Of a stretch of DNA of 64,000 nucleotides, positions 53,583 to 56,354 are shown in pieces. Position 1 is the stretch's first letter; every line of letters begins with the position of its first letter. The translations under genes and the position numbers were made by a program. Where the stretch lies: assembly GCA_020348445.1 (NCBI GenBank), contig CP070751.1, forward strand, positions 2,744,750 through 2,808,749, in the 5' to 3' direction. Below the pieces are notes generated by a model. That model worked only from the letters and a program-made list of their open reading frames with translations. It had not been told where the DNA came from and made no database searches. The DNA comes from Thermoplasmata archaeon. Its GTDB lineage: Archaea > Thermoplasmatota > Thermoplasmata > GCA-020350865.

Positions 53583-53606
53583 AAAAAGCGGGCCTGGCGG
53601 GATTTG
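53583..53606 (-). repeat. att-like copy of tRNA-Lys 3' end (distal)
   Basis: aaaaagcgggcctggcgggatt (22 nt) is identical to 55998-56019. Confidence 0.9.
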
Positions 53607-53774: not shown

Positions 53775-54599
53775 ATGCCGAGTGTGTCCCACATGAAGAA
53801 GATTGATATGGTATACGCGGAGATCATGAAAAGACAGGTTGTGAATACTGATGACTTAGATGAAATCATGTTCTCTGTATTCGGGAAACCTCTTCAATAC
53901 AAGTATTTTTATAATCAATATCTATCAAAACTTGTTAAAGAAAATAAATTGGTAAGGATTCGCAGGGGATTATATCACGGTATCGATATCTATTCCACAA
54001 GAAAATCAAAACCTGATAAATACCTGATCAGCGCGAAGCTCAGGAAACATTATTATTTGGGTTATCATACTGCCCTTGAATTGCATGGATGTGCTTATTC
54101 AGATTTCAATCGATGCTATATTGTTACAACCCCTAATTCGAAATTTGAACCTTTTTACTACGATAACCTGAATTTTCAAAAAGTTTTCACTCGGGATATT
54201 GAAAGTTTTATTGAAACAATAAAATATTCGGGACAAAGCATCTGTGTCTCCAATCCATCAAGAACATTTGTTGAATGCATAAATAGACCTGAGTTTTGCG
54301 GAGGATGGGAGGAGGTTTTAAAGAGCCTAGATTCTCTCGGTAACGTAAAAATCCATGAAGTGCAAAAGATCCTTAAAATATATGATAAGCAGATCCTTTA
54401 TCGAAAATGCGGATATGTACTTGACATCATGATAAAAAATTCTCCATATTATAAACATATTGAGAAACAAAAAGGGCTACATCCAATTGGGAAAAGCGCT
54501 CCAGATTTGTTTATTAAGAAGAACAATAGAGGTAAATATATTCCAAAATGGAAACTGTTTGCCCCATTCGATTTTGCTGAGCTGATAAGAGAGGTGTGA
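53775..54599 (+). CDS. abiEi: Type IV TA antitoxin AbiEi family
   Basis: N-terminal wHTH ending LVRIRRGLY; YLGYHTALELHG; VSNPSRTFVECI.RPE.CGG.EEV; RKCGYVL. Confidence 0.85.
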   Translation: MPSVSHMKKIDMVYAEIMKRQVVNTDDLDEIMFSVFGKPLQYKYFYNQYLSKLVKENKLVRIRRGLYHGIDIYSTRKSKPDKYLISAKLRKHYYLGYHTALELHGCAYSDFNRCYIVTTPNSKFEPFYYDNLNFQKVFTRDIESFIETIKYSGQSICVSNPSRTFVECINRPEFCGGWEEVLKSLDSLGNVKIHEVQKILKIYDKQILYRKCGYVLDIMIKNSPYYKHIEKQKGLHPIGKSAPDLFIKKNNRGKYIPKWKLFAPFDFAELIREV

Positions 54600-55507
54600 A
54601 CTTGGATCTCTCATTGTATCAGGATACCATTTCAGAAAAAATCGAGAGAATATGTGATATTTTGATTCAAACGAATAAAATAAGTACTCTTAGGGATCAT
54701 TTGAGTTTTTATGGCGGGACGGCATTGAATTTTCTCTATCTGAACGTTCCCAGATTGTCTGAAGATTTGGATTTTAATTATAGACAGGTCAATTCACAGG
54801 ACTGGGGGGAGGTCAGGAATGACATCGACATAGAAACCAAAAGGATCTTATATGATCTTGGATACCATCGAGAAAGTATTAAAATTCAGCCTATGTATAA
54901 CCTGTGCAGATTTTATATAGAATATATAAATTCTAAGAACCTAAAAGATCTCATTAAGATTGAGACAGGATATATGCGAAGAATTCCCATTCTAAAAAAC
55001 GACACGTTTAAAGAATTCATCCATCCTGTAACCGGACAGCATATTGATATAAAAACACCACAGAAAGAAGAGTTATTCGCAAATAAGTTCTGCACGATGT
55101 TCTCAAGAGAAAGCATGAGTGTAAGGGATATTTTTGATGTCTACAACATATCTAAAGCTGAGTTCGAATTTTCCTTGTTTTGTGATGTTGTAATGATCGA
55201 ATCAATATTCATGAATATAGATATCATGAATTTTTCGTTGACCTCATTGGATGAGAAAATGCAAATGGATCGAATCCAGGATTTTGTGGCAGGGGAAATC
55301 GATTGGACAGCCATCAACGAGGGAGTCAAATCATTTGTCATGAGGATCCAAGCTGAATTAAAGGTCCGTGACCATCCAAAATTGATCAGGGAATTTCATA
55401 AGTCCAAAACAATTAATATTGATCAGATCATTAACAAGAGTAAATTAAATGATGGGATACAAGAGCATCCGATATTGTTGTGGATAATTGAGGAAATCTC
55501 AAAATAA
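54596..55507 (+). CDS. abiEii: Type IV TA toxin AbiEii family nucleotidyltransferase
   Basis: FYGGTALN...RLSEDLDF, IKIE, EELFANK, RDIFD. GTGA overlap with abiEi. Confidence 0.9.
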   Translation: MNLDLSLYQDTISEKIERICDILIQTNKISTLRDHLSFYGGTALNFLYLNVPRLSEDLDFNYRQVNSQDWGEVRNDIDIETKRILYDLGYHRESIKIQPMYNLCRFYIEYINSKNLKDLIKIETGYMRRIPILKNDTFKEFIHPVTGQHIDIKTPQKEELFANKFCTMFSRESMSVRDIFDVYNISKAEFEFSLFCDVVMIESIFMNIDIMNFSLTSLDEKMQMDRIQDFVAGEIDWTAINEGVKSFVMRIQAELKVRDHPKLIREFHKSKTINIDQIINKSKLNDGIQEHPILLWIIEEISK

Positions 55508-55532: not shown

Positions 55533-55550
55533 CGGGCCTGGCGGGATTTG
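55533..55550 (-). repeat. att-like copy of tRNA-Lys 3' end (middle)
   Basis: cgggcctggcgggatttg: 16 nt identical to the tRNA end, 18 nt identical to 53589-53606. Confidence 0.9.
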
Positions 55551-55618: not shown

Positions 55619-55903
55619 TTATTTGCAGAATACTTTCTCTTCAAATTTATATTTTGCAAGAAACCGCCAAACAATCAACCAAAAGGGAATAATAAGAAAG
55701 ATACCTCCCAAAAGCAAGATTGGCCATGCAACCGACAATGTATGTATAGGCCAGATAAATCTATCTAATAATCCAAAGTGAATAAAGAGGAATAAAAGTA
55801 AAGCAATAAACCCAGTGAATATTACAAGCAGGATAAACATCAACAGTATCAAACGTGCAATCTCTCTTCCATGAATTGTTTCCATATTTGAAATGAGACC
55901 CAT
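55619..55903 (-). CDS. Small two-TM membrane protein (islet cargo)
   Basis: Two long hydrophobic stretches and a basic C-terminus; lies between two att-like repeats. Confidence 0.6.
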   Translation of the reverse strand: MGLISNMETIHGREIARLILLMFILLVIFTGFIALLLFLFIHFGLLDRFIWPIHTLSVAWPILLLGGIFLIIPFWLIVWRFLAKYKFEEKVFCK

Positions 55904-56003: not shown

Positions 56004-56157
56004 CGGGCCTGGCGGGATTCGAACCCGTGACCGATCGGTGTCCCTGTGGCCAATGCCCCAACAACGAAGTTAGGCTGGAATTCACGCCAGGTTTCTTTGT
56101 CAGAACAAAGAAACGCACATAAGAGCCGATCGCTCTACCTAGCTGAGCTACAGGCCC
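56004..56157 (-). tRNA. trnK: tRNA-Lys(CTT) with 80-nt intron at 37/38; CCA not encoded
   Basis: GGGCCTG-TA-GCTC AGCTAGGTA GAGC-G-ATCGG CT CTT A [intron] A CCGAT-CGGTC-ACGGG TTCGAAT CCCGC-CAGGCCC-G; 74-nt mature length. Confidence 0.95.
56040..56119 (-). other. tRNA intron with bulge-helix-bulge motif
   Basis: C32-U33-C34-U35 pairs with intron AGGG; 3-nt bulges UAU and ACA; outer helix GUG/CAC. Confidence 0.9.
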
Positions 56158-56320
56158 AAGCGGATGTAAACCCTGTAGCGAAGCTATAAAGTGGCGGAAG
56201 CAAAGCGAACGCCACGGGTATAGCTGAGCTACAGGCCCAAATTGATGTATTGCGAATGGAGCTCAGCTATTTAGTGGTGTAAGCGAAGCGAGCACCACGA
56301 ACATGCTGAGCTACAGGCCC
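56158..56320 (-). repeat. Two tandem 81/82-bp palindromic units, each duplicating the tRNA-Lys 5' end
   Basis: (ta)gctgagctacaggccc at 56140-56157, 56221-56238 and 56305-56320. The intervening sequences are homologous to each other and contain nested inverted repeats. Confidence 0.9.
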
Positions 56321-56345
56321 CTTGCTCCGTCGTAATGGAATGAGA

Positions 56346-56354
56346 TTTAATAAA
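56346..56354 (-). promoter_or_regulatory. TATA box upstream of the most distal tRNA 5'-end copy
   Basis: TTTATTAAA on the minus strand, 26-34 nt upstream of G1 of the 56320 copy. Confidence 0.55.

Follow-up and report, generated by a model that had tools for sequence, protein, structure and literature searches.

Fold-back units that copy the adjoining tRNA end upstream of tRNA-Lys(CUU) and at other tRNA borders in Thermoplasmata

Two hairpin-forming units, each carrying a direct and an inverted copy of the start of the tRNA, were found upstream of the tRNA-Lys(CUU) gene of an uncultured Thermoplasmata archaeon (G000, a single contig of 5.16 Mb), within an analysed stretch of 64,000 nt referred to here as the window. 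We favour reading them as dispensable, dispersed fold-back modules that are embedded in the pre-tRNA leader and belong to a gene-less, lineage-wide family of Thermoplasmata, and we give this reading an about even chance of being correct. tRNA genes are classic landing sites of mobile DNA, which in the cases known so far arrives as a large element at the 3′ end. The modules described here are small hairpins without genes that copy the adjoining tRNA end, occur at both gene ends in several Thermoplasmata lineages and border up to half of a genome's dispersed tRNA genes. No published description of such tRNA-end units was found; literature coverage was incomplete, so this is absence of evidence only, and the family is apparently undescribed.

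The tRNA-Lys(CUU) gene (56004-56157, minus strand, like its units and promoter boxes) is intact and has an 80-nt intron at the canonical position. It matched Rfam RF00005 as a full-length tRNA (48.2 bits, model positions 1-71), and ARAGORN called a tRNA-Lys(CTT) with the 80-nt canonical intron once introns were allowed; with default settings ARAGORN made no tRNA call in the window and the gene was missed. The first 16 nt of the tRNA (56142-56157) are exactly repeated at 56223-56238 and 56305-56320, giving 3 matches against 0.15 expected, a number reached in 0 of 100 shuffles. The copies are spaced 81 and 82 nt apart, with 63-66 nt of hairpin-forming non-coding DNA between them. The proximal unit (81 nt, 56158-56238) consists of an 18-nt tRNA 5′ copy (56221-56238), a linker, an inner hairpin with a 6-bp GTGGCG/CGCCAC stem and a 13-nt loop (56191-56215), an antisense arm (56172-56187) that makes 14 of 16 pairs with tRNA positions 4-19 of its own copy, and a spacer (56158-56171) with a CCGCTT motif at the end adjoining tRNA position +1. 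The distal unit (82 nt, 56239-56320) consists of a 16-nt tRNA 5′ copy (56305-56320), an inner hairpin (56274-56298), an antisense arm that is an 11-nt perfect complement (56260-56270) and a spacer (56239-56259). Every element that a sequence-only reading had described at this locus was found where it had been placed, both TATA-like boxes included.

Searching with the inner hairpin pattern gave 2 matches against 0 expected by chance, and these two, both at tRNA-Lys, were the only ones across the 5.16-Mb genome. When the two units were folded together, the minimum free energy was -61 kcal/mol (z = -5.4 against shuffles) and the centroid fold displayed two separate hairpins. The two linkers beside the hairpin have no mutual complementarity, which sets the palindrome apart from what simple snap-back would yield.

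The native promoter is represented by a TATA-like box, TTTATTAAA (56346-56354), with its centre approximately 30 nt upstream of the distal copy. This box is orthologous to the box standing before the first copy, or before the unit-less gene, in four relatives. The 5′ side of this orthologous A/T-rich box contains conserved bases. Its end lies 23-34 nt before the outermost copy in all four assemblies with units, and in the relative G003 the distance from the end of the box to the unit-less tRNA-Lys gene downstream is 39 nt. With the usual archaeal promoter spacing, transcription would start at or just before the outermost copy, which would place the units in the leader. Because the outermost copy lies behind this conserved native box in every unit-bearing genome, it marks the original promoter-gene junction, as had been proposed from the sequence; the proposed leader of approximately 165 nt likewise agrees with the position of the units downstream of the box, from which they would be transcribed. 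The second box, TTTATA (56185-56190), lies in the proximal unit 27 nt before G1. At this place G000 and G002 have a good box (TTTATA or TATATA), and G001 and the metagenome contig L072 a poor one (TCCATA or TGCATA); since the box is not conserved, the replacement promoter that had also been suggested is not a feature of the family.

In the favoured reading, a 5′ module is composed of X (a copy of the first 11-21 nt of the tRNA), a stable hairpin, an imperfect inverted copy, X′, and a spacer adjoining the next X. The Lys modules, situated between the conserved promoter and the intact gene, would be transcribed as the leader of approximately 165 nt, and each X would pair co-transcriptionally with its own X′. 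By such pairing the anti-tRNA arm would be neutralised and the real 5′ end left untrapped, so that the tRNA could fold, and RNase P would release tRNA-Lys at the true +1 (56157), thereby removing the modules. The folds of the units in sense and antisense were equally stable and had similar numbers of G-U pairs (62 vs 80), and the lack of preference for the tRNA-sense strand gives no pointer to action as RNA or as DNA. The cumulative GC skew of the 5.16-Mb contig, inspected for replication polarity, had no clear shape. Whether or not the modules move, RNase P and the 3′ processing enzymes would have to cope with long and highly structured pre-tRNA leaders and trailers, and these archaea offer a test bed for the effects of structured flanks on tRNA maturation.

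It could be argued that the true 5′ exon is the outermost copy, with everything up to gene position 18/19 being removed as a giant D-loop intron by non-canonical splicing. We assign this only a very slight probability. The unit-less tRNA-Lys of G003 (contig 20, L023, minus strand, from position 1448) does have a 36-nt D-loop insertion at position 18/19, exactly where the unit copies cease matching the tRNA; it opens with nearly the bases of the unit linker and is predicted to fold in a loosely bulge-helix-bulge-like way, but the contig ends within the gene. Splicing is unnecessary, since the units are followed by a complete tRNA that scores as full-length in Rfam, and no canonical bulge-helix-bulge was seen at the unit boundaries by inspection and RNAfold. 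Bulge-helix-bulge tRNA introns were reportedly found to transpose in Thermoproteales by Fujishima et al. in 2010; like the units, they are small structured inserts common to different tRNA genes of one genome. These introns interrupt the gene and need a splicing motif, whereas the units lie outside a full-length gene and duplicate its end, which also distinguishes them from split tRNAs.

Unit number at tRNA-Lys(CUU) varied in the genus, whose other members include CP070739.1 (labelled Methanomassiliicoccales archaeon) and one uncultured Thermoplasmata MAG. Three units were present in G002, two in the source genome and in L072, one in G001 and none in G003, so that the anticipated copy-number variation amounted to 0 to 3 units in four other assemblies. 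An assembly artefact was ruled out by the occurrence of the same architecture, with differing copy number, in these four independent assemblies. Since presence and number differ between close species, the modules are regarded as dispensable.

Eight Lys units from the four unit-bearing assemblies were aligned over 83 columns. Mean column identity was 82%, 91.8% of the cells were paired in a two-helix structure, and the covariation score was unmatched by any shuffle. The hairpin contains compensatory changes, with one pair appearing as AU (3), CG (3) and UA (2) and another as GC and AU. None of the 15 columns of X (columns 1-15) was variable, in comparison with 8 of 16 columns in the antisense arm and 14 of 16 in the spacer, and a 2 × 2 mismatch of the proximal antisense arm is common to 6 of the 8 units. 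The distal unit of L072 is a mosaic, its hairpin half being 97% identical to the proximal unit of G000 and its arm and spacer half 84% identical to the distal one; the single unit of G001 has the reverse pattern. Orthologous, mosaic units indicate that the units are older than the species splits and have recombined with each other. Together with the compensatory substitutions in the hairpin stem, the sharing of orthologous units between species marks the modules as old and structurally constrained. Arrays would grow, shrink and be reshuffled through recombination among X copies and among units.

The main rival of the favoured reading, although somewhat unlikely, is that the units are functional leader elements under selection, acting either in the biogenesis of tRNA-Lys or as small RNAs. 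They might form a structured, triphosphate-capped leader that shields the precursor, provide a decoy/antisense pair that times or throttles RNase P, or give rise to hairpin RNAs that are released by RNase P and mimic the tRNA 5′ end for some factor. The invariance of X beside diverging neighbours suggests, as far as the alignment goes, a constraint beyond the needs of a neutral or selfish element, and gene conversion across a 16-nt patch does not easily account for it. The compensatory changes, the position downstream of a conserved promoter, and an architecture kept across the order and in two class-level relatives despite differing hairpin sequences also favour a function, as does the distribution of CTTCGG, found 8 times in tRNA sense and 0 times in antisense in 3.4 kb of 5′ units (genome, 0.17 per kb); the units counted are mutually related, however, and the counts are not independent. 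Against a functional leader stand the patchy distribution between close species, with no Lys unit in G003 and empty sites at Ser(TGA), Leu(GAG) and Phe in G001, the lack of strand asymmetry in stability and G-U pairs, and the lack of units at about half of the dispersed tRNAs of G000.

Metagenome contigs were also scanned. An exact-pattern scan for the copy-plus-linker motif gave 0 matches. Two spaced copies of the 16-mer were found in 44 contigs, among which only L072 belonged to the Lys-unit family; those of the others that were checked by tRNA finder or by eye had bacterial-looking tRNA genes (Met, Ala) with an internally deleted tandem copy upstream. In the set L037-L078, much of which comes from one large group, many contigs have a bacterial-looking tRNA-Met gene with an upstream copy of its first approximately 26 nt, directly fused to a copy of the gene's own terminator hairpin; the arrangement is conserved across many contigs. 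This tRNA-Met pattern is an internally deleted tandem gene copy and not the archaeal unit family.

Units were not restricted to tRNA-Lys. A 12-mer from each tRNA's own end, recurring with at most 1 mismatch within 600 nt, was detected upstream for the 5′ end in 17 and downstream for the 3′ end in 24 of 69 predictions in G000, which include a 19-gene unit-less cluster and a few false calls; all ten control combinations of segment, side and strand in G000 gave 0-2. The corresponding figures were 9/27 and 14/27 in the congener G001 and 5/24 each in G005, from another family of the order. Five class-level genomes gave 6/35 (five in G006 and one in G017) and 1/35, and eleven phylum-level genomes gave 0/25 genuine 5′ cases, two matches being neighbouring tRNA genes, and 3/25. 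In the G005 units the parts are arranged in the same order and the hairpins differ, the G006 cases are clear units of the same architecture, and the single G017 case is weaker, with a copy and a short hairpin visible and no clear antisense arm. The architecture therefore reaches beyond one genus: it was found in a second family of the order and, among the five genomes at class level, in two. The specificity for 5′ ends that had been proposed did not hold, 3′ ends being decorated even more often in G000 and tRNA-Lys itself having 3′-end copies. Layouts at the two gene ends are mirrored, with the outward order spacer, inverted copy, hairpin and direct copy.

Units of 71-95 nt with the same internal order stand at about 20 tRNAs. 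The direct repeats are 11-21 nt long depending on the tRNA and are always the tRNA's own start, and the antisense arms of unit-bearing tRNAs fit their own 5′ end far better than the ends of other tRNAs, with z ≥ 2.8 at 13 of them (Lys, z = 3.3). The arms thus track each host tRNA, which the sequence-only reading had put forward as a check. A GTGG..CCAC hairpin with fixed C and T flanks is common to units at different tRNAs, and the spacer motif just before +1 was present in 7/20 unit-bearing and 0/45 unit-less tRNAs; hairpin flanks and spacer motif of the Lys units recur in units at Leu, Ser and Phe tRNAs. In an annotation-blind search for direct repeats enclosing an inverted copy, 23 of 60 matches lay within 700 nt of tRNAs, a zone covering approximately 2% of the genome, and in G000 the family members are confined to tRNA borders. 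Because hairpin and spacer modules are common to unrelated tRNAs, the units appear dispersed and not locally made, and they probably spread by an insertion or recombination process. First arrival at a tRNA would be an insertion-like event duplicating the tRNA 5′ end, and the leading candidates for dispersal are hairpin-dependent single-strand recombination and microhomology-mediated template switching between tRNA genes.

Three loci, Ser(TGA), Leu(GAG) and Phe, are occupied by units in G000 and empty in G001, and their flanks can be aligned. In all three the native flank upstream meets the distal copy, and X repeats enclose an extra block of 87-167 nt. At Leu(GAG), the native upstream flank reaches the distal copy, and the extra 167 nt are bounded by the repeated tRNA start. 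The extra block at Ser(TGA) is 87 nt long and includes a spacer to which nothing in the empty site corresponds. The Phe locus is longer by 113 nt, made up of a 48-nt hairpin-bearing filler and a 65-nt direct duplication of leader and tRNA start. By sequence, the occupied sites look like insertions with target duplication. Recombination between direct repeats would leave identical empty sites, so the direction, gain or loss, cannot be read from these three loci. As to the tiny element targeting tRNA ends that had been proposed, a family of varying copy number stands, and mobility is a matter of interpretation, the empty sites being equally compatible with precise deletions.

A purely local origin, next after a functional leader among the rivals, is unlikely in our judgement. 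It would involve replication template switching (snap-back, tandem inversion duplication) at a barrier located at the tRNA border, followed by unequal crossing-over, with nothing dispersed. Its appeal lies in the X...X′...X layout, which is that of a classic inverted triplication and is mirrored at both gene ends; tandem inversion duplications and inverted triplications have the same direct-inverted-direct order of one segment and likewise expand afterwards through unequal crossing-over. Exact recent tandem duplications were moreover found of a whole unit at Asp in G006, in the 3′ array at 5.062 Mb in G000 and of a 147-nt super-unit behind a Phe-like tRNA; the examination of Y1 HUH genes yielded no enzyme linked to the units, and the architecture recurs in distant lineages with unrelated hairpin sequences. 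Template switching uses local sequence only, however, whereas units at unrelated tRNAs (Leu, Ser and Phe for the Lys unit) have in common both the spacer motif and the hairpin with its conserved, asymmetric flanks, which unit-less leaders and empty sites lack. The non-complementary linkers flanking the hairpin and the Ser(TGA) spacer without counterpart in the empty site likewise speak against it. Should the modules be immobile, they would be a striking natural archive of repeated rearrangement at tRNA borders.

Known families of repeats were compared with the dispersed modules. REP/BIME/REPIN sequences, mobilised by RAYT Y1 HUH enzymes, are similarly short, gene-less, hairpin-forming and multi-copy, show compensatory change and are frequently arranged as tandem or inverted pairs. 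The arms of a REP are defined by the element itself and do not differ among its hundreds of copies, which lie at many intergenic sites; the outer arms of the units are copied from the adjoining tRNA end, and the units occur only at tRNA borders with very few copies per hairpin variant. Many dispersed copies of one palindrome were not found, the Lys hairpin having 2 copies in 5.16 Mb. Unlike the terminal inverted repeats of MITEs, which are part of the element and constant from copy to copy, the outer arms are the host tRNA end and differ per tRNA; in place of a short target-site duplication with a fixed length, the units have direct repeats that consist of 11-21 nt from the start of the tRNA itself. 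The stretches between the copies are mutually homologous (82% mean column identity over the whole unit alignment), in contrast to the unrelated spacers of a CRISPR array. The modules mislead repeat and CRISPR callers as well as tRNA gene finders.

Genes for Y1 HUH transposases (PF01797) were detected in all five genus genomes, with 5-17 matches each, and also in G005; none was found in G006 or G017, both of which have upstream 5′-end copies. The flanks of the solitary Y1 genes in G000 were without unit hairpins. In this examination of Y1 HUH genes, no enzyme could be linked with the units; the earlier reading had proposed looking for a co-occurring HUH/RAYT gene. Two identical solitary Y1 HUH genes of 149 aa lie outside the window in G000 (2,860,356-2,860,805 and 3,339,016-3,339,465, minus strand); they have 190 nt or more of upstream sequence in common, with a nested fold-back in the 5′ UTR as part of it, and look like IS200-like elements. 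This fold-back was considered as a link to the units; the 10-mer that it shares with the Lys antisense arm has 10 occurrences in the genome, which is chance level, and the Y1 HUH genes were the only ones examined as a possible autonomous partner of a MITE.

At the 3′ end of tRNA-Lys, the last 15 nt are found exactly at 53589-53603, 55533-55547 and 56004-56018 (minus strand). These copies bound two cassettes without an integrase, one of 456 bp with a 94-aa hydrophobic ORF (55619-55903, minus strand) and one of 1.93 kb with an AbiEi/AbiEii toxin-antitoxin pair (53775-55507, plus strand). The distal 15-nt copy retains the native T-run flank of the gene, which indicates that the cassettes were inserted into the 3′ end of tRNA-Lys. 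In relatives, copies of the tRNA-Lys 3′ end occur at +211 to +402.

These classical-looking cassettes count in favour of the possibility that the upstream units are integrase scars, each X being the att site of a mobile element that integrated in the tRNA 5′ end and decayed to approximately 65 nt, which we consider very improbable. Direct repeats of a tRNA segment do bound the inserted DNA beside an intact gene, and the native flank is displaced outward. These features and tandem stacking are shared with the archaeal tRNA-targeting integrative elements that use SSV-type and pNOB8-type tyrosine recombinases. Such elements, however, measure kilobases, encode an integrase, usually involve the 3′ part of the tRNA and have no inverted att copy, in contrast to approximately 65 nt of non-coding DNA with an inverted arm; no integrase gene, coding remnant or cargo was present in the 63-66 nt between the Lys repeats. 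To our knowledge, tyrosine-recombinase integration does not create an att site in inverted copy. Independent decay would not be expected to leave, at about 20 tRNAs, units of 71-95 nt with one internal order, and one integrase would need to act on many tRNA sequences.

The possible working of the modules, and not their membership, recalls the attC sites of integrons and the attP site of the CTX phage, which are imperfect hairpins with conserved unpaired bases that mimic, as single strands, a duplex recombination site. Folding of this kind would explain the need for both X and X′ and the conserved 2 × 2 mismatch. The arms of attC do not copy the target gene, whereas those of the units copy the tRNA end, and no integrase of this type and no R-box-like consensus was identified for the units. 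A bolder variant, improbable in our estimation, is that the units are miniature mobile elements whose arms can be re-written. Such an element would be a hairpin module in single-stranded form (DNA or RNA-templated) and would recognise a tRNA border by means of a folded copy of that border (X:X′ with the fixed unpaired patch). Insertion would restore the gene, and the arms would be rebuilt from the target on each move to a new tRNA. We know of no described transposon or integrase that uses arms rebuilt from its target; if the modules move, they would embody such a targeting principle and possibly a source of non-canonical tRNA introns, as the same machinery could yield hairpin inserts in the T-loop.

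Hairpin modules in the T-loop were observed at two places in G000 outside the window. A module of approximately 50 nt with the same GTGG..CCAC hairpin as the units lies between GAAT and CCC, once in a Glu-like tRNA gene and once in a 3′-end copy behind another tRNA (approximately 668,280-668,330, minus strand, and approximately 5,100,340-5,100,400, plus strand, respectively). In the 3′-end array, it is present in the second and not in the first 3′-end copy, a clean insertion polymorphism within one array. Such T-loop modules may be a source of non-canonical introns.

Further observations were made on unit-bearing and unit-less tRNA genes. Three G006 tRNAs, Thr-TGT, Thr-CGT and Asn-GTT (L144, L149 and L154), have identical first 26 nt and a near-identical upstream unit, which suggests conversion of the unit and the 5′ half between genes. 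The G006 tRNA-Asp (L139) has a repeat period of 68 nt with no mismatch over the approximately 1.6 periods unhidden by masking, as in a recent tandem duplication. The unit-less cluster of G000 comprises approximately 19 tRNA genes of unusual sequence in 3 kb (4,640,570-4,643,566, minus strand, outside the window) and may belong to a mobile element or virus.
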